Positions 2,533 to 24,499 of a stretch of DNA of 64,000 nt are shown here, one piece after another; the first letter of the stretch is position 1; every line of letters starts with the position of its first letter. Source of the stretch: Clostridia bacterium (lineage in GTDB: Bacteria > Bacillota > Clostridia > Christensenellales > QALW01); the NCBI GenBank assembly GCA_045652205.1, contig JAZRTX010000040.1, positions 241 through 64,240 on the forward strand. The letters are read 5' to 3'. The position numbers and the translations under genes are program-made. Under the pieces are notes generated by a model. It did not search any database, was not told the DNA's origin, and saw only the letters and a list, made by a program, of their open reading frames with translations.

Positions 2533-3230
2533 TAGGTAAGATTCATTCTTTTCAAAGCCTTGGCACAGTTGATGGCCCCGGCATAAGATTCGTTGCCTTT
2601 TTAATGGGTTGCCCGTTAAGGTGTGCCTGTTGCCATAACCCTGATTTGTGGGGTGATGGCGGTAAGGAATATACCGCAGAGCAGGTTGTGGAGTCTGCAC
2701 AAAAATATAGGGATTACTTTGGTGAAAAGGGCGGAATAACCCTTTCAGGCGGTGAGCCTTTAATGCAGGCGGAATTTTGCGAAAACGTTTTTCGTTTAGC
2801 CAAAGAAAAGGGAATTAACACTTGCCTTGATACCTCAGGCTGTGTACTGAACGAAAAGGTAAAAAAGCTTTTAACTGTAACTGACAGAGTGCTTTTAGAT
2901 ATTAAATATTTAACTGAAGAAAAATATCAAAAGTATGTTGGTTGTTCCTTTAATAGCGTTAAAGATTTTTTAGAATATCTTAATCAACAAAATATTCCAA
3001 CAATCGTACGCCAGGTAATAATCCCTGGACTGAACGATTCTGAAGAAGATGCGAAAGCCTTAAAAGAATTTGTAAACAAATATTCTTGCGTTGATAAAAT
3101 TGAGCTTTTGCCTCTTAAAAAAATTTGTCAGGTTAAATATGATAATTTAGGTATTCCCTTTCCATTAAAGGATACCCCAACGCCAACAAAAGAACAAATG
3201 GAAAAACTTAATAAAATATTAAGCCACTAA
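2529..3230 (+). CDS. pflA: PFL-activating enzyme (radical SAM)
   Basis: [36 protein letters not shown] overlap with pflB. Confidence 0.95.
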
Positions 3231-6027: not shown

Positions 6028-6789
6028 ATGTTAGGTATCAATTTAAATGCCCCTATAAAATATATTTCGGCTTCATTTCGGTATTTTAAAGAAAATGAAC
6101 ATCATACAAAACGCGTTTGTGCGGATAACGTGCTTTTATTGGTGTTTGAAGGTGTTTTGAAATTTCAGGAAGATGGTAAGGAATATGCAATAAAACCGGG
6201 GCAGTATCATATACAAAAGCAAAATTCATATCAAGTGGGAACAGTTAAAAGTGAAACGCCAAAGTACCTTTACGTTCATTTTTTAGGTGAGGAAAATGAA
6301 ATAACTAACGGCGTTTTAAGTTTTGACGGAGAGTTTGACGTTCAAAAGTTTATGCCTAAATTAGAAAAACTTGATGAACTTGCACATAATAGTGCTACTT
6401 ATATTGAACAGGCTTCGGTTTTTTATCAGATACTCTCTGATTTATCTATGCCTGAAATAAAAGTAAACTCCGCAGTAAAAATTAAAGAGTTCATTGAAAA
6501 AAATTATAATCACCAGATAAATCTTGAAGATATTAAAACTGAATTCAGTTTCAGTAAAAATCATATAATTAACGTTTTTAAAAAGGAATTCGGGTTAACG
6601 CCTGTTGAATATTTAAAAAAGGTTCGGATAAAGAATGCATTAAGAAAGATGGAAGCAACAAGCGATTCGTTAGAAGAAATTGCATATTCATGTGGTTTTA
6701 ACGATTACCCGTATTTTTATAAGGTGTTTAAAAAAGAATTTAATATCTCACCTGAAAAATGGCGAAAACAAAAACGTGAAAATATATAA
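6028..6789 (+). CDS. AraC-family transcriptional regulator
   Basis: Cupin-like N-terminus; C-terminal FKKEFGLTP...EEIAYSCGFNDYPYFYKVFKK double HTH; divergent from the GH127 gene. Confidence 0.93.
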   Translation: MLGINLNAPIKYISASFRYFKENEHHTKRVCADNVLLLVFEGVLKFQEDGKEYAIKPGQYHIQKQNSYQVGTVKSETPKYLYVHFLGEENEITNGVLSFDGEFDVQKFMPKLEKLDELAHNSATYIEQASVFYQILSDLSMPEIKVNSAVKIKEFIEKNYNHQINLEDIKTEFSFSKNHIINVFKKEFGLTPVEYLKKVRIKNALRKMEATSDSLEEIAYSCGFNDYPYFYKVFKKEFNISPEKWRKQKRENI

Positions 6790-6821
6790 AAAAGCGATAG
6801 CAAAAGGCTATCGCTTTTTTT
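6787..6821. terminator. Bidirectional terminator, left boundary of the phage-like module
   Basis: AAAAAAGCGATAGC-AAAAG-GCTATCGCTTTTTT. Confidence 0.8.
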
Positions 6822-6826
6822 GCGTT

Positions 6827-7234
6827 TTAAGGCAACTGTTTTTTATAATACAGCCAGAAAGCTTTTTTTATAAGTTCTTCCGGTACCGAAAAATGTTCCG
6901 ATAATTCAAAAACCGTAGAATGTTCATCTAAAACAGCGTCAAGTTTGTTTTTAGGTACAAGCATTTCAACGGTCTTTTTATTGGCGCGGTTTTCCATTCG
7001 TGCAACAAAAACGGGATTATCTGATTTTGTGTAATAGGCATCAGTTAACGCGTGGCCGATTTCGTGGGCAAGCACAAGGCGTTCATCATACTCACTTTTT
7101 AAAACAGACGGGTCAATACCAATAAATTTTGCGCCGTTAAAGTTAAGCGAAATCGCTTTTGATAAAGGGCAGGCAACAGCGTGGGTTTTAATGCCTTTTT
7201 GTTCAGTAAGCGAATATAGTTCCTTTAAGTTCAT
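6827..7234 (-). CDS. ImmA/IrrE-family metallopeptidase (anti-repressor)
   Basis: ERLVLAHEIGHA (HExxH) and MENRAN; directly downstream of an XRE repressor. Confidence 0.88.
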   Translation of the reverse strand: MNLKELYSLTEQKGIKTHAVACPLSKAISLNFNGAKFIGIDPSVLKSEYDERLVLAHEIGHALTDAYYTKSDNPVFVARMENRANKKTVEMLVPKNKLDAVLDEHSTVFELSEHFSVPEELIKKAFWLYYKKQLP

Positions 7235-7291
7235 AACCCATCACATCCTTTCCTTTATATGTTAGCAGTTCCTATGTCCAAAAATAAGGAC

Positions 7292-7624
7292 TTAGGAATT
7301 TTTTTTCAAAATGTAATCGGCGTAAGCCTTAACTTCTTCAAGCATCTGGTCGGTAACGCCTTCCTTAGCATTAAAAAGGGCAAACTTTAACTGATCGGTG
7401 GTGATGTTCATATCAATCATATTATCGTCTTCCCCTGCAAGCCAACGGGGTGAAACGTCCAAAGCGTTTGCAAGCTTTACGATACTTTCGTACTTTGGAA
7501 AATAAGTTCCTTTTAAATAAGTGCTGATAGAGGATTTGTTAATTTCGCAAATTTTAGCAAGTTGGGATTGCTTCATGTTGCGCTCTGTCATCGCCTCTTT
7601 AAGTCTTTGGGCAAAAACTGCCAT
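7292..7624 (-). CDS. XRE-family (ImmR/CI-like) repressor
   Basis: FAQRLKEAM...QSQLAKICEINKSSISTYLKG...P...IVKLANALDVSPRWLAG HTH_3. The ATG at 7624 has GAAGGAG at a usable spacing. Confidence 0.92.
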   Translation of the reverse strand: MAVFAQRLKEAMTERNMKQSQLAKICEINKSSISTYLKGTYFPKYESIVKLANALDVSPRWLAGEDDNMIDMNITTDQLKFALFNAKEGVTDQMLEEVKAYADYILKKNS

Positions 7625-7647
7625 AAAAATCATCTCCTTCGTTTAAT

Positions 7648-7676
7648 ATGCTAACACAAAAGTTCAGAAAATGCAA
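7648..7676 (-). promoter_or_regulatory. Leftward promoter of the repressor/immA unit
   Basis: Minus strand TTGCAT, 17 bp, TAGCAT with a TG extended -10; the -35 is overlapped by operator 1. Confidence 0.6.
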
Positions 7677-7859
7677 CAAAAAATTATAAAAATTCGCAAA
7701 AAATAAGGAAATTTGACAAAAAAGGTCAAAAAATGTAGGAAAAAGTAAATAAAAAAGTTCAGAAAACTGTACTAAATTTGTTGACAAATACAAAAACCCA
7801 ACCTATAATTAGTTCAAGTTACCAAACAAAAACGGACAAAAAGTTTGATAAACTGAACA
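7661..7859. promoter_or_regulatory. Four 18-bp operator-like sites, consensus AGTTCAG-N4-CTGAACW
   Basis: 7661-7678 AGTTCAGAAAATGCAACA; 7756-7773 AGTTCAGAAAACTGTACT; 7811-7828 AGTTCAAGTTACCAAACA; 7842-7859 AGTTTGATAAACTGAACA. Confidence 0.7.
7781..7809 (+). promoter_or_regulatory. Consensus sigma-A promoter driving the structural/lysis operon
   Basis: TTGACA (7781-7786), 17 bp, TATAAT (7804-7809). Confidence 0.85.
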
Positions 7860-7915
7860 AAAAATGCCTTCTCCACTAAAAAAGGTCAATTTAATTCAAT
7901 TTAGGAGGAAACTAA

Positions 7916-8320
7916 ATGTCATTAAAAAAAGAAGATCAACTTTGTTGGGATTGCCAAAGGGCAATCGGTTTATGCCCCTGGTCCCAAAGGGGAGAAGAAG
8001 TTAAAGGGTGGACAGCCACTAAAACGCTGATACCCAATGGGTGCGAAAGCGAATACACTGAATCTTATAAAATCACAAAATGCCCATTGTTTATTAAAGA
8101 TAAAGAAAGAATGCCTGTGGTTTTTGCAGGGGATAGAATAAGCATAAAAACTCTTGCACTTTTACTTAATATGAAGCAACGCACCTTAAAAAGCTGGCAG
8201 GATAATAAGATCGTAAAGGAAGCTGAAAAAAAGGGTATTAAGGTTGAAATTTTAAGGCAAAACGTTCGCACCATTAAGGTTAAACAGATTATAAGGAAAC
8301 AGGAAAATGCTTTGTTGTGA
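7916..8320 (+). CDS. Hypothetical Cys-containing protein with possible C-terminal HTH
   Basis: LCWDC...CPW...CPLF and ISIKTLALLLNMKQRTLKSW; AGGAGG RBS. Confidence 0.7.
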   Translation: MSLKKEDQLCWDCQRAIGLCPWSQRGEEVKGWTATKTLIPNGCESEYTESYKITKCPLFIKDKERMPVVFAGDRISIKTLALLLNMKQRTLKSWQDNKIVKEAEKKGIKVEILRQNVRTIKVKQIIRKQENALL

Positions 8321-8450
8321 TGATTGTAATCATATTTTTCAAGAACCTAAACTTATTCTGTATGAGGATAGCGATGCCTATATTTCACAGCATATTTTAG
8401 TTTGCCCAAGGTGTTTTAGTACAAACTTTTTTGACGTTAACAATGGCTAA
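8307..8450 (+). CDS. 47-aa zinc-ribbon-like protein (not in ORF track)
   Basis: MLCCDDCNHIFQEPKLILYEDSDAYISQHILVCPRCFSTNFFDVNNG has two CxxC motifs. It is preceded by AAGGAAACAGGAAA and fills the operon gap. Confidence 0.7.
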   Translation: MLCCDDCNHIFQEPKLILYEDSDAYISQHILVCPRCFSTNFFDVNNG

Positions 8451-8466
8451 AAGGAAGTGATTAAAG

Positions 8467-8652
8467 GTGGCAAAAGGAAAAAAGGAAATACAGGCGGTTA
8501 AGGATTTTTGGCACAGCGTAATGGAAGATGAAGAAATCAATATTCAGCATCGGCTTAAAGCATCTGAGCTTTGCGCTAAACTCAGCCAGGAAACAGACGC
8601 TGATACAAATCAGGTAGTGGTGTTTACAGGTGAAAAGGAAATCAAAGATTAA
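8467..8652 (+). CDS. Putative minimal terminase small subunit
   Basis: FWHSVM...HRLKASELCAK resembles the TerS C-terminal oligomerisation segment; it overlaps terL. Confidence 0.55.
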   Translation: MAKGKKEIQAVKDFWHSVMEDEEINIQHRLKASELCAKLSQETDADTNQVVVFTGEKEIKD

Positions 8653-9961
8653 AATATATCTTCCCGATATTATTGGCGCAGGCTACGGGCACTTTTGGAA
8701 AAGTAAAAAGCGTTATCGCGCTCTGAAGGGTGGCAAGGGCAGTAAAAAATCAACAACCACCGCTTTAAATTACATATACCGCTTAATGAAATATCCTGAA
8801 AGCAATCTCTTGGTTGTTCGCGCGGTGTTTAATACCCATAAGGATTCTACCTTTGCCCAGTTAAAATGGGCGCAGGAAAGATTAGGGGTAAGTCATCTTT
8901 GGCAAAACAACGTTGCGCCAATGGAAATGACCTTTAAACCAACGGGGCAAAAAATACTTTTCCGCGGTTTTGATGACGTTTTAAAGCTTGCATCTACCAC
9001 CGTTTCAAAAGGCTATCTTTGTTGGGTTTGGATAGAAGAAGCCTTTGAAATTAAATCCGAAGCCGATTTTGATAAATTAGATCTTTCTGTGCCACGTGGC
9101 AACGTTCCTAAAAATTTATTTAAACAAACCACGCTTACCTTTAACCCTTGGAGTCAGGACCATTGGCTGAAAAAACGGTTCTTTGATAAAAAAAGCGAAA
9201 ACGTTGATGCTTATACCACCAACTACAAGGTAAACGAGTTTCTTGATGAAACCGATAGAGCCATATTTGAACGGATGAAAAATGAAAACCCAAGAAAATA
9301 TGACGTTGCCGGTTTAGGTAATTGGGGAATAACTGACGGGCTGATTTATGAAAACTGGGTAATAAAAGATTTTAATATTGAAGAATTAAAAGCTTCGCCA
9401 AACTTTAAGGCGTTCTTTGGGCTTGACTATGGCTACACCAACGATCCCACTGCTTTTATTGCGTTTTTTGCTAACCCTATAAAAAAGGAAATCTATATTT
9501 TTGACGAGCATTACGGCTATAAAATGTTAAATTCACATATTGCCCAGATGATTAAAGATAAAGGCTTTCAAAAAGAAAGAATAAGGGCAGATGCGGCAGA
9601 GCCGAAATCTAACGAAGATTTAAGAAGAATGGGGATTGGGCGTCTGCAAGCTTCTGTTAAGGGAAGGGATAGCGTAATAAACGGTATTATGGCGTTGCAG
9701 GAATATAAGATTTTCGTTTTAGAAAAATGCAAAAACACCATTAACGAGCTTTCTTCCTACTGCTATAAAAAAGATGCTTATGGCAAGGGGATTAACGAGC
9801 CGGAAGACAGCAACAATCACTTAATGGATGCTTTTAGGTATGCTTTTTATGACGTTCGCTTTTTTAAACCCCAAACAAAAACAGAAAGACCTAACCCTCA
9901 AGAATACTACGATATGAAATTCAGGCTGACCCCTGAAGATATGAAAGGAGAATGGAATTGA
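8630..9961 (+). CDS. Terminase large subunit, PBSX/SPP1-like family
   Basis: KGGKGSKKS Walker A, WIEEA Walker B, TFNPW coupling motif, GLDYGYTNDP and NHLMDAFRYA nuclease motifs. Confidence 0.95.
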   Translation: MKRKSKIKIYLPDIIGAGYGHFWKSKKRYRALKGGKGSKKSTTTALNYIYRLMKYPESNLLVVRAVFNTHKDSTFAQLKWAQERLGVSHLWQNNVAPMEMTFKPTGQKILFRGFDDVLKLASTTVSKGYLCWVWIEEAFEIKSEADFDKLDLSVPRGNVPKNLFKQTTLTFNPWSQDHWLKKRFFDKKSENVDAYTTNYKVNEFLDETDRAIFERMKNENPRKYDVAGLGNWGITDGLIYENWVIKDFNIEELKASPNFKAFFGLDYGYTNDPTAFIAFFANPIKKEIYIFDEHYGYKMLNSHIAQMIKDKGFQKERIRADAAEPKSNEDLRRMGIGRLQASVKGRDSVINGIMALQEYKIFVLEKCKNTINELSSYCYKKDAYGKGINEPEDSNNHLMDAFRYAFYDVRFFKPQTKTERPNPQEYYDMKFRLTPEDMKGEWN

Positions 9962-10155
9962 CGGAGATTTTAATTTTATTAACTTTATGGATAGTTTTAA
10001 TGCTATGTTCGTTTGTTTCAGGTTTTTTATTTGGCAAAAAACATAAAAAACAAACAGAAAAAACTATTCTTACGGAATTTGAAAAACGCGCCCTTGAAAA
10101 AGAAAAGCGTGAGCTTAAAAACTTCTGGACCTATAACGGCGAATCACAAAAATAA
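9952..10155 (+). CDS. Small single-TM hypothetical phage protein
   Basis: Hydrophobic N-terminus, C-terminal NFWTYNG; AAGGAG RBS. Confidence 0.7.
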   Translation: MELTEILILLTLWIVLMLCSFVSGFLFGKKHKKQTEKTILTEFEKRALEKEKRELKNFWTYNGESQK

Positions 10156-10169
10156 GGAGATAAAAAATT

Positions 10170-10871
10170 ATGGAAAATGATATTACCGCGTTAAATGATA
10201 CCATACAGGAAACGCAGAATATAGAAACGTCTGAGCCTTCACCAAAGGCAACAGACAGCGCAGAAAACAATATTACCGTACGCTTTAACCACGAAGATAA
10301 GGTGCTGACCCGCGATGAAGCAATTCAGTTTGCACAAAAAGGGCTTAAATACGAAAGTGTTCAGCCACTTTTAGACGAGCTTGCTTATTTGGCTTCTTTA
10401 AGGGGAAAATCGCCTATTGATACGGTAAAGGAATTTGTTGCCCTTGATGAAGCAGTTTATAAAAATCAGTTAAAAAGCCAATACGGTGAAGACCAAAAAA
10501 CTATTGATGCTTTAATGGAAAAGTATAAACAGGATAACGTTTCAAAAAGAGCACAGTTTGTGTCAAAGGAAAAGGAGGAGGCGGAAAAAAAGGAGTTTAG
10601 TGAGAAATTAGCGGATGAATTTGCCGAACTTAAAGGGGAGTGCCCTGAAATTGACAGCTTTGATAAAATTCCGCCTTCTGTTTTGAAAAACGCAAAAAAC
10701 GAAAACCTTTTAAATGCTTATCTGCGCTACAAGAACCGTCAGCAAGTAAAGATTGACCAAAATAATCAGACCCGCAAAAAGAATAAAGAAGCAACAGCAG
10801 GCAATCTTTTGCAAGGCGGAGAACATATTGATACGCTTTTAACGGCGTTTATAAAGGGTCTGAAAAACTAA
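10170..10871 (+). CDS. Putative capsid scaffolding protein
   Basis: Acidic helical protein directly upstream of the capsid gene; VRFNHEDKVLT...AQKGLKYE. Confidence 0.6.
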   Translation: MENDITALNDTIQETQNIETSEPSPKATDSAENNITVRFNHEDKVLTRDEAIQFAQKGLKYESVQPLLDELAYLASLRGKSPIDTVKEFVALDEAVYKNQLKSQYGEDQKTIDALMEKYKQDNVSKRAQFVSKEKEEAEKKEFSEKLADEFAELKGECPEIDSFDKIPPSVLKNAKNENLLNAYLRYKNRQQVKIDQNNQTRKKNKEATAGNLLQGGEHIDTLLTAFIKGLKN

Positions 10872-10889
10872 AAAAGGAGAAAAAATATT

Positions 10890-11792
10890 ATGGCACTTAA
10901 TTCTATTGAATATGCACAGAAGTATGCAAGCGAGCTTGATAAACTTGTTGTGCAGAAATCAGCAACAGGCTTTTTAGCCGATAACGTAATGTGCGCACAG
11001 TTCGTTGGCGCAAAAACAGTTCTTTTACCTGAACTTGATTTCGTTGGTCTTGGTGATTATGACAGGGACAACGGCTTCCCCACAGGTAAAATTACCATCA
11101 CAAACTCATCTTTTATGCTTTCAAAGGACAGAGGCAGAGAGTTACAGCTTGACAGAATGGATATGGATGAAACGGGTGTTGCAAACCTTGCAGGTCAAAC
11201 CTTAAAGGAATACGTTCGCACACAGGTTATTCCTGAAATGGATGCTTACTGCATTTCAAAACTTTCTGGCGTAGCGTTAGAAAGAAACAACAAGATTACT
11301 TATGATGCAAATAAGGTTTATCAGCAGTTTACTTCCCTTGCAAACGCAATTCAGGCAAAGGCAGGCTTTGATGAAGAGCTTGTTTGCTTTATGGATCCAA
11401 CCGCTTACGCTGCTTTAATGAATTCACCTGAACTTCAAAGGCAGATTGTAGTTTCAGACTTTAAGCAGGGTGAAATTGACCTTAAAGTTAAAAAGATTAA
11501 CGACGTTGTAATTATCCCTGTTTCAAGCGAAAGAATGAAAACTGCTTACACCTTTGATGCAGGCCAAAGCGCATTAACAGGCGGTTTTGCAGTTAGCGAA
11601 GATGCCCAGACCGTTAATATGCTTATGATGGCAAAAAGCGGTGCATCTTTAGTTAAGAAAACTGAAAATCTTCGTATTTTTGCCCCTGAAAAGAATCAGG
11701 ATGCAGATGCATACCTTTTCCAGTACAGGCTTTATTACGATGTTTTTGTTAAAAAGAGCCGCCTTGACCATATCGGTGTTGCGGTTTCCTAA
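10890..11792 (+). CDS. Major capsid protein
   Basis: YAQKYASELD, GLGDYDRDNG, DRGRELQLDRMDMDET, VIPEMDAY and YRLYYDVFV are typical of Firmicutes phage capsid proteins; strong RBS. Confidence 0.85.
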   Translation: MALNSIEYAQKYASELDKLVVQKSATGFLADNVMCAQFVGAKTVLLPELDFVGLGDYDRDNGFPTGKITITNSSFMLSKDRGRELQLDRMDMDETGVANLAGQTLKEYVRTQVIPEMDAYCISKLSGVALERNNKITYDANKVYQQFTSLANAIQAKAGFDEELVCFMDPTAYAALMNSPELQRQIVVSDFKQGEIDLKVKKINDVVIIPVSSERMKTAYTFDAGQSALTGGFAVSEDAQTVNMLMMAKSGASLVKKTENLRIFAPEKNQDADAYLFQYRLYYDVFVKKSRLDHIGVAVS

Positions 11793-11805
11793 AAAACACT
11801 TTTAC

Positions 11806-11834
11806 AAGGGGCATAAATATGCCCCTTAATTTTT
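11806..11834 (+). terminator. Internal hairpin/partial terminator after the capsid gene
   Basis: AAGGGGCATA-AA-TATGCCCCTT followed by AATTTTT. Confidence 0.6.
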
Positions 11835-11847
11835 AAAGGAGGTAACA

Positions 11848-13578
11848 ATGGAAAATATTAAGCTTAAACCACAGGAGATATTTTTAGAATATCAAAGCGC
11901 CAACGAATACAAAAATTCTATTGGCGACCGCGGGATTTATGAGCAAAGTAAAATGAACGAGCGCTTTTTTGTTGGGGATCAGTGGCACGGAGTGAACGCA
12001 GGGAACACCCGCCCCCTTGTCCGCCGTAACATTATTAAAAGAATAGGTGAATATAAAATTTCAACCCTTTGCGCAAATCCCATAGCGGTAAATTATTCTT
12101 CTGAAGGTACACCAAGTGAAAGCGGACAAATGGATATTTTGGAAAATATTCCTGAAGGCAAGGTAACAGATGAAGAAATTACCGCAGTTATGCGCGCTCT
12201 TTCCTTATATGAAGCAAGTACTGCTGAAAGAATAAAATTTAACGAAAAACTTGTGGATCTTGTTCGTGAAGCCTATATTTCAGGTACGGCTTTCTTTTAT
12301 ACCTATTGGGATGAAAAGGTTGAAACGGGGCTTTTTGCCGATGAAAATAAAACCTCAAAAATAATGGGTGATATTTCTTGTCAGGTGCAAAACGTGGTAA
12401 ACGTGATTTTAGGCGATCCAAATTTAGATGATATTCAAAGCCAGCCTTATATTATTGTTTCACAAAGAAAACCCCTTTGGCAAGTTAAACAGGAATGTAA
12501 GGAAAACGGCGTAAACAATAAGGATATTAAAAGTGATGACGGAGCTTCTGTTTATGCAGGGGACAGGGGCGAAAATCAGCCAAAGGATAACGAAAACGTT
12601 ACCGTTTTAACAAAGTTCTTTAAGGTTTTTGAAGACGGTGAAACACGCGTTAAAGCCATCAGGGTAACTGAAAATGCAGTTGTTAAAAAGGAATGGGATT
12701 TATCTTTAAGGCTTTATCCCTTTGCAAAATTCACCTGGCAACCAAGATTTTCAAGCGCTTACGGTGATAGCGAAATCACTTATCTTATTCCTAATCAGAT
12801 TGCCATTAACCGCGCGCTTTCTGCTGAAGTCTGGTCTTTAATGATTACAGGAATGCCTAAAATCGTTGTAAACAGGGATATAGTTTCGCAAAACGTAACT
12901 AATGACCCCGGTCAGATAATCAATATTAACGCAGGGGAAGATTATGACGTTCACCGCGCGCTTTCCTACGTTTATCCGCCGCAGTTTGCAAATCAGATGC
13001 AAAACGTTATAAACGATATTGCCCTTAATACCCTTTATGATTCAGGGGCAAACGATGCGGCATTAGGTGATATTCGCCCTGATAACGCTTCGGCAGTAAT
13101 TGCTATAAGGGAAGCAGCACTTCAGCCTATGCAGGTTTACCAAATGCGTTTTTATTCCTGTATTGAAGAAATTGCCCGTATCTTTGCAGATTTCTGGGTG
13201 AATATGTACGGTGAACGCCCTCTTAAAATTCAGGATAAGAACGGCGTAAGGTATATGCCTTTTAATGCAGAAAGATATAAAAATCTTATTATAAACGCCA
13301 AGGTTGACGTAGGCGCTTCAACTATTTGGGGCGAATCTGTGGTAGTTTCTTCCTTAGATAATCTTTTAAATGCAGGCATTATTACGCCCGTTCAGTACTT
13401 AAAACGCTTACCCAAAGGAACTATTCCTGATGTTACAGGGCTTATTGATGAGATTTCTGCCCCACAGGAAGAAGACGTTTTAACAGGCTTAAAGGAACAG
13501 TATCCTGAAGAATATAATATGTTTTCTTCTTTAACAAAAGAAGAACAACAGGAATTTTTAAAAAAGGTAGGGGGATAA
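11848..13578 (+). CDS. Portal protein (P22-like podovirus type)
   Basis: 576 aa; RFFVGDQW...PLVRRNIIKR, YPFAKF...YGDSEITYLIPNQIAINR, ASAVIAIREA. Confidence 0.75.
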   Translation: MENIKLKPQEIFLEYQSANEYKNSIGDRGIYEQSKMNERFFVGDQWHGVNAGNTRPLVRRNIIKRIGEYKISTLCANPIAVNYSSEGTPSESGQMDILENIPEGKVTDEEITAVMRALSLYEASTAERIKFNEKLVDLVREAYISGTAFFYTYWDEKVETGLFADENKTSKIMGDISCQVQNVVNVILGDPNLDDIQSQPYIIVSQRKPLWQVKQECKENGVNNKDIKSDDGASVYAGDRGENQPKDNENVTVLTKFFKVFEDGETRVKAIRVTENAVVKKEWDLSLRLYPFAKFTWQPRFSSAYGDSEITYLIPNQIAINRALSAEVWSLMITGMPKIVVNRDIVSQNVTNDPGQIININAGEDYDVHRALSYVYPPQFANQMQNVINDIALNTLYDSGANDAALGDIRPDNASAVIAIREAALQPMQVYQMRFYSCIEEIARIFADFWVNMYGERPLKIQDKNGVRYMPFNAERYKNLIINAKVDVGASTIWGESVVVSSLDNLLNAGIITPVQYLKRLPKGTIPDVTGLIDEISAPQEEDVLTGLKEQYPEEYNMFSSLTKEEQQEFLKKVGG

Positions 13579-13581
13579 AAA

Positions 13582-13938
13582 ATGACTGCTTCAAAAATTA
13601 TTGAAAAAGCAATGAAGCTTCTTGGCTATGATATTTTGCAAAAAACAGGAAGCGTTACGGATATTGATGAAAACGTTATAACGGCAATAAACACCGTGTA
13701 TGCAGACCTTTATTTTTTAATCAACAAAGACGGCTTTACTGAAATTTCAAATGCCAATGAAACAGTTAATCTTCCTGAAAAAGCCGTTAGCGATATTATG
13801 CCTTACGGCGTTGCTTCTTTTATGGCATCGTTTCAAGGTGATAACGATAATCAGCAGTTTTTTTCAAAAATATATAACTTAAAAAGAAAAGGTTTTATAA
13901 AAGAAGAAACTGTAGATGACGTGCTTCCCACAGTTTAA
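13582..13938 (+). CDS. Putative head-tail adaptor protein
   Basis: Position after the portal; MTASKIIEKA...LPEKAVSDIMPYGVAS pattern. Confidence 0.5.
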   Translation: MTASKIIEKAMKLLGYDILQKTGSVTDIDENVITAINTVYADLYFLINKDGFTEISNANETVNLPEKAVSDIMPYGVASFMASFQGDNDNQQFFSKIYNLKRKGFIKEETVDDVLPTV

Positions 13939-13950
13939 GGGGGGATAAAA

Positions 13951-16164
13951 ATGATACCCGTTAAAAAGAGAACGAATTTATATCAGTTTAAAGTGCCTGC
14001 GCTTTCAGGGGGCGTAGATTTAAATGAAGATATAGCCTATATAAAAGAGAACCAACTTGCTGACTGCACTAATATGTGGTTTAAAGATGGTGCGTTAAAA
14101 ACACGTCCGGGCATAATGCAAACGGAAAACGTAAGTTTAACTAACGTTGGCACAAAAATTCAGGCTGAAAGTTTTAACAGCGTAGTTATTGACGGCAAAA
14201 ACTACGTTCTTGAATGCGAGAAATATATAAGCGGAAAAGCAGAAAATTTCTTTGGCTATTATTTCAATTTAAGGCTTTGCGCAAAGGATAGTACTATAAA
14301 CGTAGGCAGAATTGAAATAAACGTGCCTGAATTAAATGATTTTAATGCGCTTCCTATCGTTTATAGAAACGATATATACGTTTACGTAAGGCATTATAAT
14401 TGCAATGATGAAAGATACGAAAATTTTATCTGCTTATTTAAAAAAACAGGAGCTGAAACTTATTCTGAGCCCCAATATATTCTTTCCAAAGATATGTATG
14501 CGCCGTTAATTTTAACAAACTGCACCGGCTGTTATAAGGATAGCGGTTCGGCAAATACGTTAATAAGTAAAGGTGCTTCGCAGGTTGAAGGCTTTAATCT
14601 TCTTGGAAACTATTACAAAATGGAATTTTCAACTTATGATAATTCCGAAACAGGATATAAGTATTTTACAACAGGTGAAAACGGTGAAATCCTTGATTGC
14701 TTTACTTTTATGGAATATTCCTTGCCTTACACTACAAAAAACACGTTGGGGCAAATTACCGTTAAATATATTGATAAACAAGGCAAAACACATAACCACA
14801 GCGTTTACGTTCCTTATAATATACCTACCGTAGAACAAGAGGTAGGGGACGATGGCTTTTATCTTCACGCCTATATAAAGGGAAATATAGTACATTTTGC
14901 TTTTAATCAAGATGCTGACGCTTTAAACGTAACACCCGATAAAATCAGTGTTGATGATTACGTTCATAATAATATGACCGTTACTGCACCTTGTGAAAAC
15001 AGTGATGAAAACGTTAAAAAAGTTATGGGAATGACTGAGGCTATATGGTATGGTAATGCTTCGTTAGGCGTGTATGGCGGAAGCAGACTTTTCCTTTGCG
15101 GAAATATTGATGAAAAGGAAAAATCGCTGGTTGTGTGGAGTGATTTTGAAAATCCCTTGTATTTTAGCGAAAATAACTACGCTTATGTTGGGGATAAAGG
15201 GCAAAAAGCCACTTGCTTTGGCAGGCAGGGGGCTAGCTTAATCGTTTTTAAGGAACATCAGATTTATTCTTGCGATTACAGTTTGAACAGCGTTTCTGCT
15301 GATGAAATTATTGAACAGTCTGCCATTGACCTTACGAACTTGATTGCGGGCTTTACCTTTAAGCTTATTCATTCAAAAATCGGATGTGATTGCCCTAAAA
15401 CCATTCAGCTTTGTTTTAATAAACTTTTGTGGGCAACAAGCCAGGGCAAAGTATATAACTTAACTGACCGCAATCAATATTCTGAACGCAACGTTGTGGA
15501 GGTTTCAACTGCCGTCAGCCAAAAATTAAAAAAAGAAGATATGCTTTCAGCATATTCTGCTGATTGGAACGGATACTACCTTTTGTTTGTAAATAACAAC
15601 GTATATGCTATGGATTACAATAGTTATGAATATATGGGCATATCTTCATATAGTTTAAAACGAAGCAATGATTCTCTTCCGTCGTGGTATTTGTGGCAGT
15701 TGCCTTATAAGGCGTGTGCGGTTTACGGCGATGATGATTTTATGCTTATGGTGTTTATCAAAGAAACCGATAATGATAACGCAAAAATAATAAGGGGATA
15801 TTTTGATTTTAATCAAACGGTAGATTTTCTTCAAGAGTATTTCAGGATAACTTCAAAAATTAAAACGGCACTGTTTTCATTAAACAGTTTTGATTTTTTA
15901 AAACGCATTATAAAAGTAAACCTTAATATGCAAAGCAAGCAAAACGCCAACGTAATGGTAAAGTGCTTTAACGAACAAGGAGTTTCGGTTATTCATCCGT
16001 TAAACTTAAACAGCAAAATTTTTGATGGTGCGTTAAGGGTAAACAGGCAGATCATTCCCGCCCTTAAACTTTCAAGGTACTTTGGCATGGAATTAACAAG
16101 CTATGATTATTTTGAATTAAAAGAAATTACCGTTAACTTCAAACTTTTAAATAATGCAAAATAA
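13951..16164 (+). CDS. Putative tail nozzle/head-stabilisation protein (P22 gp10/T7 gp12-like)
   Basis: LSGGVDL...DCTNMWFKDGALKTRPG N-terminus, SRLFL, VWSDFENPLYF, LIVFKE and IGCDCPKTI; beta-rich. Confidence 0.6.
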   Translation: MIPVKKRTNLYQFKVPALSGGVDLNEDIAYIKENQLADCTNMWFKDGALKTRPGIMQTENVSLTNVGTKIQAESFNSVVIDGKNYVLECEKYISGKAENFFGYYFNLRLCAKDSTINVGRIEINVPELNDFNALPIVYRNDIYVYVRHYNCNDERYENFICLFKKTGAETYSEPQYILSKDMYAPLILTNCTGCYKDSGSANTLISKGASQVEGFNLLGNYYKMEFSTYDNSETGYKYFTTGENGEILDCFTFMEYSLPYTTKNTLGQITVKYIDKQGKTHNHSVYVPYNIPTVEQEVGDDGFYLHAYIKGNIVHFAFNQDADALNVTPDKISVDDYVHNNMTVTAPCENSDENVKKVMGMTEAIWYGNASLGVYGGSRLFLCGNIDEKEKSLVVWSDFENPLYFSENNYAYVGDKGQKATCFGRQGASLIVFKEHQIYSCDYSLNSVSADEIIEQSAIDLTNLIAGFTFKLIHSKIGCDCPKTIQLCFNKLLWATSQGKVYNLTDRNQYSERNVVEVSTAVSQKLKKEDMLSAYSADWNGYYLLFVNNNVYAMDYNSYEYMGISSYSLKRSNDSLPSWYLWQLPYKACAVYGDDDFMLMVFIKETDNDNAKIIRGYFDFNQTVDFLQEYFRITSKIKTALFSLNSFDFLKRIIKVNLNMQSKQNANVMVKCFNEQGVSVIHPLNLNSKIFDGALRVNRQIIPALKLSRYFGMELTSYDYFELKEITVNFKLLNNAK

Positions 16165-16178
16165 AAGGAGGAAAATAA

Positions 16179-17078
16179 ATGGCAAAAACTTATACTGATT
16201 TTCTTCAGGAAATATTAAATGCACAAAAGGAAGAAAAAGATAAGCAACACGCAAACGTTGATGCAAAATACGATATTCTTACAAAGGAAATTACAGATAA
16301 ATATTCCGCTGAAATTGAAAACGTAAAAGGAATTTACGATGATTATATTGATAAATCCTACGTTCAAAAGCTTATAGATAAAAAACAGGTTGAAGAAACC
16401 CTTGCAAATATGGGCTTGACGGATTCAGGGTTAAACAGAACACAGCAAACTGCGGTTCAGTTAAGCCACGCCAACCGTGTGGGAAAGTATAGTTTATCAA
16501 AACAACAACAGATTGATTCTTTGGCAAAGGAGATGCAAAGCAAATTAACTGATGCTGCAATAAATGCCGAACAAGAAAAAACTTCAATAAATCAAAGTTT
16601 TCAAAAAAGTGCCGAATCAAAGGCAACGGATCTTTACGAAACTTATGAAAAAGGTGAAAACAAGCAAGAAAAGGCTTGGACGAAGGTGGTTAATTCACTT
16701 TTTGATGATGATGTAAGTTCTAAGGAACGCACATTTATTTTAGAAGAGTATTTTCTTAAATACGGGCTTAATTCCAATGAAAAATTATTGCTTGATAAAA
16801 TGCAGATAGACTACAAGAACTTAGGTAAAAAGGTTGAACCGCAAAAGCAGGAGCCTGTTGATTATGCTTTAACTGACCAAAGAAAAACTCAGCTTCAAAA
16901 AATGTGTAAGGATACCCTTATAACAAAGCAACAGTTCAATAACGAACGCAAATTAGGTAACTTTAAAGGCAGTTATAACGAATACGTTAAAGGTGTAATT
17001 ACAAACTGGCGTTTTTCGTTACGAATCAATCAGGCGGAATTTGAATATTTGCTTGATTACTACGGATTAAATAAGTAA
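16179..17078 (+). CDS. Putative internal virion/ejection protein
   Basis: Coiled-coil Q/E/K-rich sequence with LANMGLTDSGL motif; follows the nozzle gene. Confidence 0.4.
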   Translation: MAKTYTDFLQEILNAQKEEKDKQHANVDAKYDILTKEITDKYSAEIENVKGIYDDYIDKSYVQKLIDKKQVEETLANMGLTDSGLNRTQQTAVQLSHANRVGKYSLSKQQQIDSLAKEMQSKLTDAAINAEQEKTSINQSFQKSAESKATDLYETYEKGENKQEKAWTKVVNSLFDDDVSSKERTFILEEYFLKYGLNSNEKLLLDKMQIDYKNLGKKVEPQKQEPVDYALTDQRKTQLQKMCKDTLITKQQFNNERKLGNFKGSYNEYVKGVITNWRFSLRINQAEFEYLLDYYGLNK

Positions 17079-17092
17079 AGGAGGAGATTTTT

Positions 17093-17644
17093 ATGGCTTT
17101 AAGAAAAGTGATTTTTAACGTTTCAAAAAACGGTGTTGAACCGTTAGATTACGCTTGGGGCGGAATTCAGAATGAGGATAACGCCACGGAAGTGAATTTT
17201 GTTCTTGATAACGAATATTTTTTAACTTTAAATGAAGATTGCGAAACCCTGTTTTTCAGAATTGATTTTGAATCCGGTTTTGCGGGATATAATCCATCAG
17301 AAAATCTTGAAATGGTTGATAACGCTATAAAACGTGAAATTCCTAAGGCAATCACCCGATTTGGCGGTGAATTTACAAGTACGCTTGTTGTTACAAGGCT
17401 CTTAAATAACGGAGAATATCAGCAGATTTTAACTGTTCCTGTAACGCTGTTTTTAACGCAGAATAACGTAAAGGACAAGCCTTTAATCAGTAATCTTTCT
17501 GCTTTTGAAGAACACATTTTAAAAAACGTTAAGGAATGTTCTTCCATTAAACAACAGATGGAAAATAAGCTTAACAGCGATATAAACGAAATTGCTGAAC
17601 TTGTAAAACAGGAATTTATTGACGTTTCGGAGGTGGCAAAATGA
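17093..17644 (+). CDS. Putative tail/receptor-binding attachment protein (BppU-N-like)
   Basis: GGIQNEDNATEVNF beta-sandwich-like N-terminus; position in the tail module. Confidence 0.4.
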   Translation: MALRKVIFNVSKNGVEPLDYAWGGIQNEDNATEVNFVLDNEYFLTLNEDCETLFFRIDFESGFAGYNPSENLEMVDNAIKREIPKAITRFGGEFTSTLVVTRLLNNGEYQQILTVPVTLFLTQNNVKDKPLISNLSAFEEHILKNVKECSSIKQQMENKLNSDINEIAELVKQEFIDVSEVAK

Positions 17645-18396
17645 GCAAAAACGCAATAATGCCGCTAACGGATTACGAAAACGTTTGTAATACAATCCGC
17701 GAAAAAACAGGTTCATCAGATTTAATTAAATCAGGTGAATTAACAGAAAAAATCAACGAGGTTTTTGAAAAAGGTAAGCAAGCAGAACACAGTGATTTCT
17801 GGGATAAATACCAAAATAACGGTAAGCGTACAAACTATGACGGCGTATTTTTCGGCAAAGGATGGACGGAAGATACTTTTAAACCTAAATACGATATTGT
17901 GCCAACTTCAATCGGACACATGTTCAGGGGAAGTAACTTAAATTGCGATCTGGTAGAACATTTAGAAAACCTTGGTGTAACACTTGATTTTTCAAAAAGC
18001 AATTTGTTTTATTATACGTTTTATGATGCCAACGTTAAACGCATTGGTGTTATTGATGGTTCTAACATTACAACGTATCAATCGGCGTTTGTAAAATGCA
18101 CGGCGGAAATAATTGATAAAATTATAGTGCATCCCGAAGCAACGTTTACAGATACGTCTTTTCAAATGCCAAACCTTGAAGAAATACGCTTTGAAGGTGT
18201 TATCGGAAAGGGTGGGTTGAACTTTTCATATTCACCGTTATTAAGCCGCGATAGTTTAAATAATATCATTGGCACGTTAAAAGATATTTCCCAAACGGGT
18301 GAAAACTACACTTTAATCTTAGGCAACGTAAACCTTAATAAATTAACCGATGAAGAAAAGGCAATTGCTACAAATAAAGGATGGAATCTTCAATGA
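17641..18396 (+). CDS. Putative tail-associated/receptor-binding protein
   Basis: CNTIREKTG...IKSGELTEKI N-terminus and C-terminal AIATNKGWNL are seen in phage tail-associated proteins; ATGA coupling. Confidence 0.45.
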   Translation: MSKNAIMPLTDYENVCNTIREKTGSSDLIKSGELTEKINEVFEKGKQAEHSDFWDKYQNNGKRTNYDGVFFGKGWTEDTFKPKYDIVPTSIGHMFRGSNLNCDLVEHLENLGVTLDFSKSNLFYYTFYDANVKRIGVIDGSNITTYQSAFVKCTAEIIDKIIVHPEATFTDTSFQMPNLEEIRFEGVIGKGGLNFSYSPLLSRDSLNNIIGTLKDISQTGENYTLILGNVNLNKLTDEEKAIATNKGWNLQ

Positions 18397-18677
18397 GTTA
18401 TTTTCTTATAGTAGTTGAAATAATAAGTGGATTAACGGTGATAACAGGCGTTTTAAGTGCGTTCTTTATTTGGATAAAAAGGCTTGTTGAAGGGCAAAAA
18501 TGTCAGTTAAGATCCGATATGCTTCACATTTACTACAAGCATAAGAATAAAAAGAAAATCCGCCAATATGAGTACGAAAATTTTATGCTTATGTTTAAAG
18601 CATATAAGGCGTTAAAAGGCAATTCTTTCATTGATGAAATTTATAACGTTGTCACCCATTGGGAAATCATTTCGTAA
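18393..18677 (+). CDS. Holin-like single-TM lysis-module protein
   Basis: N-terminal TM helix then KCQLRSDML...YKALKGNSF; immediately upstream of the endolysin. Confidence 0.55.
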   Translation: MSYFLIVVEIISGLTVITGVLSAFFIWIKRLVEGQKCQLRSDMLHIYYKHKNKKKIRQYEYENFMLMFKAYKALKGNSFIDEIYNVVTHWEIIS

Positions 18678-18688
18678 AGGAGAAAAAT

Positions 18689-19387
18689 ATGCGAACAAAA
18701 ATTATAAAACAGGCAAAATTATGGCTTAATAAAAACGAAAAAGACGGAAGTTTTAAAGAAATTATTGATATTTATAATTCACATAAACCGCTTGCAAGGG
18801 GTTATAAAGTAAAATATACAGATGAATGGTGCGCGGCATTTGTTTCGGCAGTTGCGATTAAGTGCGGATTAACAAATATTATTCCAACAGAATGTTCTTG
18901 CGGTAAAATGATTGAAAAAGCGCAAAAAATGGGTATATGGGTTGAAAATGATGCATATACACCCAATATAGCCGATATCATTTTATACCATTGGAAAGAT
19001 TCAGGCGTTGGGGATAATAAATCTTGGCCAAACCACGTTGGAATCGTTGAAAGTGTAACGAATAATACTATAAAGGTTATTGAAGGCAATCTCAATAGTG
19101 CAGTTGGTTATCGCAATATTAAGGTAAACGGCAAAACTATCCGCGGTTATATCTGCCCCCAATATGCTGATGAACAAAAGACGGAAGAAAAAGAATATTA
19201 TCCCAAATATACAGGCAAAACCAACAGTATTGTTGATGCATTAAAAAGCCTTAAAATTGATTCTTCCTTTAATCATCGCAAGCAAATTGCAAAGGCTAAC
19301 GGTATTACGCTTTACGTTGGTTTAGCCAATCAGAACATAAAATTATTAACCTTGTTAAAGCAAGGAATTTTAATTAAGGAGAAATAA
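18689..19387 (+). CDS. CHAP-domain endolysin
   Basis: WCAAFVS (catalytic Cys), NHVGIV (His), VIEGN; C-terminal SIVDALK...RKQIAKANGI cell-wall-binding domain. Confidence 0.9.
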   Translation: MRTKIIKQAKLWLNKNEKDGSFKEIIDIYNSHKPLARGYKVKYTDEWCAAFVSAVAIKCGLTNIIPTECSCGKMIEKAQKMGIWVENDAYTPNIADIILYHWKDSGVGDNKSWPNHVGIVESVTNNTIKVIEGNLNSAVGYRNIKVNGKTIRGYICPQYADEQKTEEKEYYPKYTGKTNSIVDALKSLKIDSSFNHRKQIAKANGITLYVGLANQNIKLLTLLKQGILIKEK

Positions 19388-19391
19388 AAAA

Positions 19392-19592
19392 ATGAAAATG
19401 TCAAACAAAACTTATGATATTTTAAAATGGATAGCCCTGTATTTTCTTCCTGCCCTTGCAACACTTTATTTTGCACTTGCAGGTATATGGAATTTACCTT
19501 ACGGCGAACAGGTGCTTGGTACAATTTCAGCTATTGACACCTTTTTAGGCGTGCTTCTTGGATTAAGTAGTGCAAAGTATAAAAGCGAATAA
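19392..19592 (+). CDS. Phage holin (Dp-1-like family)
   Basis: MSNKTYDILKWIALYFLPALATLY...LPYGEQVLGTISAIDTFLGVLLGLSS. Confidence 0.88.
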   Translation: MKMSNKTYDILKWIALYFLPALATLYFALAGIWNLPYGEQVLGTISAIDTFLGVLLGLSSAKYKSE

Positions 19593-19618
19593 AAAAGCAC
19601 CCGATAGGGTGCTTTTTT
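19591..19618. terminator. Bidirectional terminator, right boundary of the phage-like module
   Basis: AAAAAAGCACCC-GATA-GGGTGCTTTTTT. Confidence 0.85.
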
Positions 19619-21186
19619 TATTTAATTAGTTCTTTATACAACTTAAAGGTATTAGGCATTACTTCCTCATTAAAACGATAAAGTGATGAATATGCGTTTT
19701 TGCCGTAAAGCACGTAAGCGTTTATGGTAACGTAATCGTTACTCATTTTTGCAGGTGTTTTTGATGTAAATGCATAATCATAAAAAGTAACGTATTCCTT
19801 TTCTTCCTGCGTAAGTGTGTTAAATTCCTTGTAAAAGGTTTCATATAACGTTTTGCGGTCTTCAACTGTAAATTTGTAACTGTTTGAAAAAACGTAAACG
19901 TCAGTACGCATAGTGTATTTGGGTACGGTAAGGAACGCTTCTTTATACTTTTGATTCTGGGATATTATCTTAACTAATTTGTTGCGGTTGCTTGTGGATA
20001 AAGTAATCGTTTTTGTACTTATTCTGCCAAGCCTGTCTTTAAAAGTTAAGGATATATGATTTGTGGAAGTGTTTGCAGGATATTTACCGTTTTCATCAAG
20101 TATATCAAGCACTTGGGGATCACTGATAAATATTTTTTCGGCATTTTGCGCTTGGTAAGTGTAAAAATCATAATAAAGGTTTGTTTTTGCGCTTGGCGGC
20201 GTATATTGGTCTTTTATGTTAGAAGCAAGCGTAACCGCAACGGGTTTGGTTAACGTTTCGCTTGTGGAAATATAAGAATATACTTGGTAGGGTATCACAC
20301 TTGCGGTTAAAAACAGAACAAACGAAAGCGTTACGCTTGCAAAGCAAAGATAGCATTTTTTCAGCGTTTTTAATGAAATTACGTTTATTAAGAACGTGAA
20401 GAACGAAAAAATGAAAAATGTAAGTCCGTAAAACAAATTAAGCACGTCAGTTTCTGAAACAAGCAAATCTAAAATTAAATATATAGGTAAGGTTTCAAGA
20501 TACATTTGCCTAAATATAGTAAATTTAGGCTCAAAGCCTTGGCGCTTAAAGGTTAAAAATCCAAGCAATAAGAATACCACGCCCATAATAACGTAGATAT
20601 GCAAATATTTTAAAAGTGAAAACGCTTCATACTTGCTATTAAATATAAACAATTTCAAAAACGAAATTAACAAAAACATTAACGAAGCAAAGGTAGCTCT
20701 ACCTGATTTTTGCAAGAAAAACACGTTAAATATGGTAAACCCTGCAAGCATAAAGCAGATGCCGAACACGTTTAAAAAGATATTTAACATTTCGCCTAAA
20801 AGCATTACTTGCCAATATTCGCATATCAGGGCTACAACGGATAATATTATACCGACAGTTATTAGGTGAAATAAAATCTGGCAAAAAACTGCAACAGTTA
20901 TGGTAACGTATCTTTCTAACGGTGAATAGGGCAAAGCCCCGTGAAAATCGCAAGCCTTTCTTTTAAAAATAAAATTAAAGGCACATAACGGTAAAACTAT
21001 TGCAATCAAACAAGAAAATAACAGTAAATATTCATCAACGTATTCAATGGTGTAGCGCCGTGTTAATGAAGAACGTTCTAAAATATTACCAACACCCATA
21101 AAGCAAATTAACAGAGTAAGCAATGCATTTGGTAATATTAAACGGCGCATGGTTTCTTTAAATAACCCTTTGTTAAAAATACTCAA
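19618..21186 (-). CDS. ABC-2-type transporter permease
   Basis: Multiple TM helices; FIFKRKACDFHGALP motif. Confidence 0.75.
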   Translation of the reverse strand: MSIFNKGLFKETMRRLILPNALLTLLICFMGVGNILERSSLTRRYTIEYVDEYLLLFSCLIAIVLPLCAFNFIFKRKACDFHGALPYSPLERYVTITVAVFCQILFHLITVGIILSVVALICEYWQVMLLGEMLNIFLNVFGICFMLAGFTIFNVFFLQKSGRATFASLMFLLISFLKLFIFNSKYEAFSLLKYLHIYVIMGVVFLLLGFLTFKRQGFEPKFTIFRQMYLETLPIYLILDLLVSETDVLNLFYGLTFFIFSFFTFLINVISLKTLKKCYLCFASVTLSFVLFLTASVIPYQVYSYISTSETLTKPVAVTLASNIKDQYTPPSAKTNLYYDFYTYQAQNAEKIFISDPQVLDILDENGKYPANTSTNHISLTFKDRLGRISTKTITLSTSNRNKLVKIISQNQKYKEAFLTVPKYTMRTDVYVFSNSYKFTVEDRKTLYETFYKEFNTLTQEEKEYVTFYDYAFTSKTPAKMSNDYVTINAYVLYGKNAYSSLYRFNEEVMPNTFKLYKELIK

Positions 21187-24123: not shown

Positions 24124-24124
24124 T

Positions 24125-24499
24125 TTAATTTTCCTCCAAAGAATAAATACTGTTGATTATTTCTATCAAACTATCTTTTCCTACGCCTGATGCCCGGTAT
24201 TTAATCAGCAATTCTTTAAAATTCTTAAAATCTGCATTGTATTTTTTTCTGATAATTTCAAAAGCTTCAGGGGCGATAAAACTGCCTTTGCCTACAATTG
24301 AATATATTAACCCTCTTTTTTCAAGATCACCGTATGCTTTTGAAATGGTGTTGGGGTTAAGGGTTAATTCCATTGATAATCCGCGAACACTTGGCAACTG
24401 TTCGTTTGGCTTTAAAATACCCTTAAGAATGCCATCTTCAATCTGATCAATTATCTGTTCATAAATGGCAGTTCTTGATCGTAAGTTTATTGAAAACAT
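24125..24499 (-). CDS. ytrA: GntR/YtrA-subfamily regulator
   Basis: IYEQI...LPSVRGLS...NPNTISKAYGDLEKRGLI...GKGSF; short C-terminus. Confidence 0.85.
   Translation of the reverse strand: MFSINLRSRTAIYEQIIDQIEDGILKGILKPNEQLPSVRGLSMELTLNPNTISKAYGDLEKRGLIYSIVGKGSFIAPEAFEIIRKKYNADFKNFKELLIKYRASGVGKDSLIEIINSIYSLEEN

Follow-up and report, generated by a model that had tools for sequence, protein, structure and literature searches.

We analysed a window of 64,000 nucleotides (positions 241 to 64,240 of contig JAZRTX010000040.1, assembly GCA_045652205.1) from a Clostridia bacterium of the Christensenellales. Positions 6827–19618 of this window hold a block of phage-derived genes, which a preliminary description made from the letters alone had proposed to be a domesticated gene transfer agent (GTA). 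The genome (G000; other G numbers denote further genomes of the same genus, and L numbers loci) measures 1.68 Mb, is 90% complete and carries the block as a single copy. Every named open reading frame (ORF) of the block was located where the preliminary description had placed it, and searches of Pfam, PHROG and NCBIfam identified the M78 peptidase, XRE, PBSX-family TerL, capsid, portal, CHAP lysin and Dp-1 holin.

Two genes lie on the reverse strand: an ImmA/MpaR-type M78 metallopeptidase with an intact HExxH motif, a likely anti-repressor (6827–7234; Pfam PF06114), and an XRE (ImmR/CI-like) repressor (7292–7633) recognized by profile matches and orthologues in relatives. All remaining genes are on the forward strand, where a sigma-70-type promoter (TTGACA-17-TATAAT, 12/12 match; 7781–7809) is predicted to drive the entire operon. 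This consensus promoter had been described earlier, as had the clean bidirectional terminators at both boundaries, which the hairpin scan recovers as terminator-like hairpins at 6788–6820 and 19591–19618. The operon begins with two early-gene relics, one Cys-rich (7916–8320; 34–36% identical to its early-gene counterpart in the full prophages of G012 and G011) and one with a zinc ribbon, of 47 amino acids (aa), recognized by alignment with relatives (8307–8450). The packaging and head genes are a small terminase with no helix-turn-helix at its N-terminus (TerS; 8467–8652), a large terminase of the Terminase_3/PBSX family with intact Walker A and nuclease motifs (TerL; 8630–9961; TIGR01547, 167.9 bits, cut-off 105), a 67-aa hydrophobic protein with a counterpart in the parent prophages (9952–10155), a probable scaffolding protein that precedes the capsid gene (10170–10871; weak PHROG matches and alignment), the major capsid protein (10890–11792; phrog_422, E = 6e-79; 29–35% identity to annotated phage head proteins) and, after a forward-strand terminator-like hairpin 3' of the capsid gene (11806–11827), a P22/SU10-type portal (11848–13578; phrog_156, with PF16510 and PF23899 on relatives). 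The adaptor label given earlier to 13582–13938 is backed by position and conservation between portal and nozzle only, and this probable head-tail adaptor has no family match. The tail genes encode a 737-aa podovirus nozzle (13951–16164), a coiled-coil-like 299-aa protein, by position and conservation a probable internal or ejection protein (16179–17078), a probable tail-fibre attachment protein homologous to the N-terminus of the collagen-repeat fibre genes of full prophages (17093–17644), and a probable receptor-binding fibre tip that differs among species (17641–18396; 32–36% identity to G006, G016 and G018, the N-terminus 67% to the G011 full prophage). A 98-aa membrane-type protein, possibly a second holin (18381–18677; phrog_4105), a CHAP endolysin with its catalytic Cys/His motifs (18659–19387) and a Dp-1-type holin (19392–19592; PF16938, E = 4e-31) complete the block.

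The nozzle was assigned by its predicted fold. A model of the 737-aa ORF built from 134 homologues (pLDDT 92) resembles the nozzles of the T7 gp12, P22 gp10 and SU10 tails (E = 1e-18 to 1e-11). Because this match is joined by P22/SU10 portal domains on relatives of the portal, the particle is predicted to be short-tailed, in line with the type of module suggested at the outset. Sequence searches of the PDB with alignments of the nozzle and the 299-aa protein gave no match, and atlas searches returned only unnamed clusters, one Phage_stabilise lead and DUF7934. Family searches and the nozzle fold gave no match to a sheath, tube or tape-measure protein among the block proteins, and family searches of its ORFs found no toxin-like gene. 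The reported lack of integrase and replication genes holds for the 17 ORFs scanned with Pfam and PHROG, and so does the lack of a direct repeat flanking the ends among the 20 largest repeat families listed; both tyrosine recombinases of the G000 genome sit on contigs other than that of the block. The word usage is host-like, as noted before: ACGT occurs 4.9 times per kb in the block and 4.1 in the genome, versus 1.7 in the 61–64 kb region of the window, and the 4-mer profile of the block falls at the 33rd percentile of 113 genomic windows.

The control region supports the proposed ImmA/XRE switch. Four palindromic operator-like sites, GTTCAG-N4-CTGAAC, start at 7662, 7757, 7812 and 7843 around the promoter (7662–7858), versus 0.08 expected, and none of 500 shuffles gave four. 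The promoter is kept in all seven aligned species, G016 showing a single -35 change, and a palindrome directly after the -10 box was found in the same seven. Among 84 genome-wide sites with up to two mismatches, no second cluster was seen by eye. In the Listeria monocin an MpaR-type protease cleaves the repressor (PMC6872733; statements on cited papers, here and below, refer to the parts of their text that were accessible), and by this analogy ImmA probably cleaves XRE. In one metatranscriptome, contigs covered ImmA–XRE, scaffold–capsid and the lysis genes and almost none covered spoIIE; the scaffold–capsid contigs stop near the post-capsid hairpin. This is a weak hint that the block is expressed, coming from the contigs of a single run that stem from a roughly 95%-identical relative and carry no strand information.

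The capsid gene is present in 12 of the 20 other genomes of the genus (64–96% identity), where it belongs to two forms: a reduced form of the G000 type, and complete prophages of the same phage family, here called full. The reduced form occurs in nine genomes, G000 included. There are six full copies (G010, G011, G012, G013, G017 and G020), and both forms co-occur in G011 and G013. On a host tree of six genes from all 21 genomes of the genus, the reduced form is limited to one clade of ten species, with 9 of 10 inside and 0 of 11 outside, and ImmA is present in all ten (61–82% identity). The block is contiguous at 12.6–13.3 kb in G000, G006, G007 and G016, and is linked to DUF4363–yetF on one contig in six of the nine (G000, G006, G007, G013, G016 and G018). 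In G011 a contig break falls inside the fibre gene and the lysis end adjoins DUF4363, while the copies of G005 and G014 are assembled in pieces. On the left, a GH20 gene adjoins ImmA in G005, G007, G012, G013, G014 and G018. The block is missing from the DUF4363 site in each of the 11 outside species, the contigs stopping early in G003, G015 and G019; one of them, G009, has a single lysin-like ORF about 10 kb from the site. Further afield, the capsid profile gave one match outside the genus among 401 genomes of the order, and the nozzle profile matched none of the nine other genomes of the family. In G018 a local inversion (L028:5765–11797) put about 5 kb of host genes between ImmA and XRE, both of which are intact.

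The parents of the reduced form are temperate podoviruses of about 34–39 kb (L040–L041, L037–L038 and L045–L046) with the same late-gene order; identity between the two forms is 73–80% for TerL, 64–74% for the capsid and 63–65% for the portal. Parent prophages hold SSB, genes of replication type and, ahead of TerS, a probable late activator that is DUF1492-like. An integrase survey that took in G010, G011, G012 and G020 found the integrase by Pfam in G010 and G012 and by BLAST in G011, and a serine recombinase on a separate contig in G020. Directly after the 299-aa gene, all six full copies carry a giant LPD/MuF-C gene (2,400–3,200 aa), which in two runs off the contig. Of 31 other family loci of sufficient length for a verdict (duplicates included), 28 also have this giant gene; among the three misses, one is riddled with frameshifts and two end within a long ORF. 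The reduced form lacks the integrase, Cro, replication genes and late activator of the parents, and its two early genes are followed immediately by TerS. Since the early module of the G020 prophage bears the same ImmA–XRE pair plus Cro, the switch is, judging from its genes, phage-derived. The preliminary description had named relatives carrying the block together with an integrase and replication genes as the mark of a recently deleted prophage. Such prophages do exist in the genus, but as separate full prophages at other sites; recent deletion is ruled out by the deletions, locus and selection common to nine species.

The same truncation of TerS is found throughout the reduced form. Its open frame, from stop to stop, spans 60–80 codons in 9/9 reduced copies versus 129–154 in 6/6 full ones, and the G000 protein aligns with residues 69–126 of the TerS from the G012 prophage. 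What is missing is the N-terminal region, which in the full copies tested matches Terminase_2, so that the helix-turn-helix is lost in 9/9 reduced and 0/6 full copies; full-length and reduced proteins are 39–44% identical. In the GTA of Rhodobacter capsulatus (RcGTA), loss of the TerS helix-turn-helix has been proposed to abolish sequence specificity and so explain random packaging (PMC6854486), and a TerS without a DNA-binding domain has also been described for the Faecalibacterium element FpGTA (PMC12946183). Because the small terminase has lost its DNA-binding end, we consider non-specific packaging of host DNA probable. TerL, portal and capsid are under the tightest constraint of all the genes, with ratios of nonsynonymous to synonymous substitution rates (dN/dS) of 0.04–0.12, which suggests that the filling of heads with DNA is itself selected.

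The reduced copies have descended with their hosts. A six-gene concatenated tree divides reduced from full copies (nine and six) with a support of 100, and the branching of the reduced copies equals that of the hosts in 6/6 splits (135,135 possible topologies). Element and host distances correlate at r = 0.97, and none of 5000 permutations reached this value. Taken singly, TerL, scaffold, portal and nozzle agree with the host tree in 6/6 splits, the capsid in 5/6 and the adaptor in 4/6. Across seven species pairs the dN/dS of the block is 0.095–0.171, compared with 0.071–0.128 for host genes. For the pair G000–G006, the dN/dS of each of the 16 genes falls within 0.05–0.24, and the synonymous divergence (dS) is 0.96 for the block and 0.78–1.56 for the four nearest flank genes. 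The 4-mer profile of its own host is the best of 21 in 8/9 reduced copies versus 2/6 full ones; in G011, ACGT occurs 0.85 times per kb in the host, 0.23 in the reduced copy and 3.27 in the full prophage. The block was fixed in the ancestor of the ten-species clade and kept under purifying selection, in line with the domestication proposed in the preliminary description. We consider it highly probable that it was domesticated with a working function.

Palindrome avoidance differs among the lineages. TCGA was not seen in the sampled host loci or element genes of G000 and G006, and other avoided palindromes are ACGT and AGCT in G011, AGCT in G013, and GATC and GCGC in G016, which suggests lineage-specific restriction or methylation.

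Several observations weigh against vertical descent and intact function. The TerL and capsid trees draw the G011 full prophage toward the reduced copies of G000, G006 and G011; monophyly of the reduced form is not rejected for these two genes (p-AU 0.11 and 0.18 in the approximately unbiased test), a result that falls short of proof. Full prophages likewise group by host clade, so congruence alone is no proof of vertical descent, and dS is close to saturation for distant pairs. The tenth species of the clade, G012, has kept ImmA and XRE between the same flanks, and its structural genes are gone. An in-frame stop interrupts the 299-aa gene of G018; in G016 the first early gene has a stop and the holin is short. 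Such lineage-specific losses, together with insertions in the G013 reduced copy, are what a cryptic prophage decaying slowly with no host function would display. The portal is also about 40 residues shorter at the C-terminus in five species, and the zinc-ribbon gene, 86–92 aa long in six relatives, is shortened to 57 aa in G006 and 47 aa in G000; for this gene the initial statement that no frameshifts or gene debris were seen needs correction, though the erosion is slight. TerL, scaffold, capsid, portal, adaptor and nozzle retain open frames in 9/9 species after about one or more synonymous turnovers (dS 0.96 and above), and with the constraint on all 16 genes between G000 and G006 this largely refutes slow decay, which we regard as very improbable.

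The G013 reduced copy also carries, between the nozzle and 299-aa genes, a 218-aa ORF seen in this genome alone (L030:9463–10119; DUF6017, with a weak match to phage replisome organisers). G012 and G013 share a variant palindrome, GTTCGA-N4-TCGAAC, multiplied to 14, 9 and 8 copies at L053:6172–7620, L030:51–5169 and L148:80–917; part of these lie inside the G013 insertions, between terS–TerL and capsid–portal. Recombination among the multiplied palindromes could be the source of the G012 deletion.

The retention of the switch alone in G012 is also what might be expected if the block were an anti-phage device directed at its own parent family. It would then act through XRE immunity or, on infection, through a truncated TerS and cognate head proteins that wreck packaging, with early lysis of the cell and with the particles serving as decoys. 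Targets are at hand, with parent prophages of 64–80% identical capsid and TerL circulating in the genus, and the early module of G020 has a related XRE (50%), an ImmA 62% identical to that of the nearest reduced copy, and one operator-like site. Yet G011, G012 and G013 harbour full prophages of the family although they hold the switch, and the selected nozzle, fibre and lysis genes exceed the needs of interference. We consider this role quite unlikely.

The presence of both forms in two genomes raises a further possibility, that the block is a satellite dependent on a helper, one that packages its own DNA or obtains the giant protein from a full prophage resident alongside it. In G011 the two copies have at least 127 identical bases of the fibre gene in common. 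Capsid-forming phage satellites are defined by an integrase, att sites and a replication module. The block differs in each respect, as no integrase, att repeat or origin gene was found in it, and its locus is fixed. Its sequencing depth is that of the chromosome: in runs of two other strains, X1 and X2, contig depths are 7.5–8.9 (long contigs) for the block against 8.6–9.9 for the chromosome, and 5.3–8.1 against 4.4–7.4, respectively. No junction of the two ends of the block is among the joints listed for four runs. Among 15 IMG/VR loci of the capsid family, all that are long enough to judge are full phages. These observations leave the satellite explanation a very slim chance.

We favour a different reading, to which we assign an about even chance: the block is a pared-down podovirus prophage, vertically inherited, that works like a gene transfer agent, making short-tailed particles filled with host chromosomal DNA. 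It has the features that characterize such agents, namely chromosomal head, packaging and tail genes of phage origin, no integration or replication genes, vertical inheritance (despite one loss, in G012, and some gene exchange with phage) with purifying selection, and a TerS without a DNA-binding domain. The genes retained are those needed to fill and release a particle, and those lost served self-copying, self-recognition and perhaps injection. In the proposed mechanism, XRE on the four operators would keep the single promoter silent; by analogy with the ImmA/ImmR and Listeria MpaR systems, it would be cleaved by ImmA once the latter is activated by a stress signal. Cro and the late activator being absent, a single transcript would span the head, tail and lysis genes, and the block itself would neither excise nor replicate. 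A truncated TerS could not recognise a pac site, and the PBSX-family TerL would begin on host DNA with low specificity; heads would be filled by a headful mechanism and particles released via holin and CHAP lysin. The weakest step would be delivery to kin, through the variable fibre tip, with the 299-aa internal protein only and possibly with uptake by host ComEC.

It is on delivery that a gene transfer agent is most open to question. The giant gene is missing from 9/9 reduced copies. LPD/MuF-C-type proteins are predicted to enter the cell with phage DNA (PMC5512222), and a 2,811-aa protein of phage phi24B (gp47) has been proposed to build an ejection conduit (bioRxiv 10.64898/2026.04.10.717836); because its counterpart is lost, the particles may not deliver DNA. 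ComEC is present in 21/21 species of the genus and does not discriminate between carriers and others; an association of ComEC with the element was rejected for this reason. Particles, packaged DNA and gene transfer are predicted here from the gene content. We regard gene delivery by the particles as doubtful, and on whether true gene transfer is the purpose of the block our judgement is evenly divided. A more specific version, in which a GTA derived by deletions from a podovirus family still infecting the genus moves random chromosomal DNA without the phage ejection machine and still exchanges fibre DNA with live phage, is tentative and falls somewhat below an even chance.

A second locus of G000 that might supply the lost genes was sought and rejected: tblastn with the proteins of six full-prophage regions gave only host genes (SSB among them), a holin with a frameshift and a broken piece of the giant gene, in a genome 90% complete. 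Elsewhere, the giant gene was searched for with one query (residues about 1,000–2,776 of the G011 protein) in five genomes. Fragments of it at contig C3 of G000 (L137:9576–10430) and contig C19 of G011 (L139:6492–7664), 97.6% identical over 247 bases, in both genomes have recG and a small spore-protein-like gene as neighbours, and represent full-prophage debris at a common site. The isolated frameshifted Dp-1-type holin lies by a tRNA-Met gene on G000 contig C17 (7863–8052; L138).

The loss of the proposed ejection protein and the rapidly varying fibre tip would equally suit a PBSX-like particle, which packages host DNA as a by-product and serves to bind, harm or kill relatives without the locus. 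PBSX of Bacillus subtilis is likewise a single chromosomal defective prophage with a repressor, a PBSX-family TerL, and head and lysis genes; it packs random 13-kb DNA without transfer and behaves as a bacteriocin would (PMC7667829). In layout the Listeria monocin matches the block, with a metalloprotease and CI-like repressor opposite two early genes, then structure and lysis; it does not excise, its tree is congruent with that of the host, and its short versions retain the protease, as G012 does (PMC6872733). The monocin is a tail without a capsid (PMC6872733), whereas the block retains capsid, portal and terminase. The likeness to PBSX extends to the terminase family but not to the killing tail. 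PBSX has a long contractile tail and the monocin a long tail. PBSX kills, and the block has a short nozzle tail instead, with no tape measure or toxin-like gene found by the family searches. With DNA filling apparently under selection as well, we consider a PBSX-like role unlikely.

As a gene transfer agent, the block is closest in setting to FpGTA, with which it shares a gut Clostridia host, podovirus-type portal, adaptor and nozzle, a chromosomal location, a TerS without a DNA-binding domain and the absence of replication genes (PMC12946183). The capsid of FpGTA is of the N4-gp56 type, and its genes form two operons some 125 kb from each other, head and packaging genes in one and fibre and lysis genes in the other, with the portal ahead of the capsid by accession order (PMC12946183). 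In contrast, the block has a phrog_422 capsid, a PBSX-family TerL, the capsid ahead of the portal, one contiguous locus that includes an ImmA/XRE switch of its own, and parent prophages that are still living. Its capsid has no NCBIfam match, and TIGR04387 is absent from G000 and occurs in 1/21 genomes of the genus (G019). Because it differs in both capsid and two-operon layout, the block lies outside the FpGTA family and is judged an independent domestication. For FpGTA, particles with about 9-kb DNA have been observed and gene transfer is likewise not shown (PMC12946183). RcGTA is siphovirus-like, host-regulated and scattered over several loci. It resembles the block in its TerS with no helix-turn-helix at the N-terminus and its vertical inheritance, a likeness of features with no sequence homology expected, and differs in that its gene transfer is proven (PMC6854486, PMC11841831). 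A literature search that left subscription journals mostly uncovered returned papers on FpGTA and alphaproteobacterial GTAs only and no published description of the element.

The class itself is not new, and the distinguishing feature is the parent phage at its side. The conversion of phages into GTAs is difficult to study, and the parent phages are usually remote. Here a single genus harbours both parent and derivative, and in two cases a single genome does, with capsid and TerL 64–80% identical, and the steps of domestication can be read. The proposal on the loss of the TerS helix-turn-helix becomes a matched-pair comparison, as does podovirus DNA delivery without the giant virion protein. 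GTAs arose several times from different phages and are not findable by homology (PMC11841831); the block adds one more independent domestication to the GTA-like packaging lately reported to be common in gut Clostridia. Immediate bench work is limited because the hosts are represented here solely by metagenome-assembled genomes.

A second reduced block of the same phage family lies in an unrelated Eubacteriales genome (L126:2711–12129) and possibly represents an independent domestication. It carries ImmA–XRE, a TerS with helix-turn-helix, another TerL family, and head and nozzle genes followed by a fibre gene; the 299-aa and giant genes are absent between nozzle and fibre, and the locus was too short to be counted in the giant-gene survey. 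The catalytic domain of the lysin is swapped in part of the ten-species clade (G007, G005 and G013; L032:10869–11711 and orthologues), and G016 has a mosaic of both types.

Next to the block, a GntR-type regulator and ABC-transporter cassette (19618–24499) separates the holin from DUF4363; other species lack the cassette, and so apparently does strain X2, in which one 1,972-base contig seems to connect the holin to DUF4363. Elsewhere in the window, a large serine recombinase at 61232–63049 lies in ACGT-poor DNA of lower GC at the contig end, likely the border of a separate mobile element. The window also holds two pairs of glycyl-radical enzyme and activase, one PflB-like at 301–3230 and one with an 842-aa enzyme at 32136–35443.

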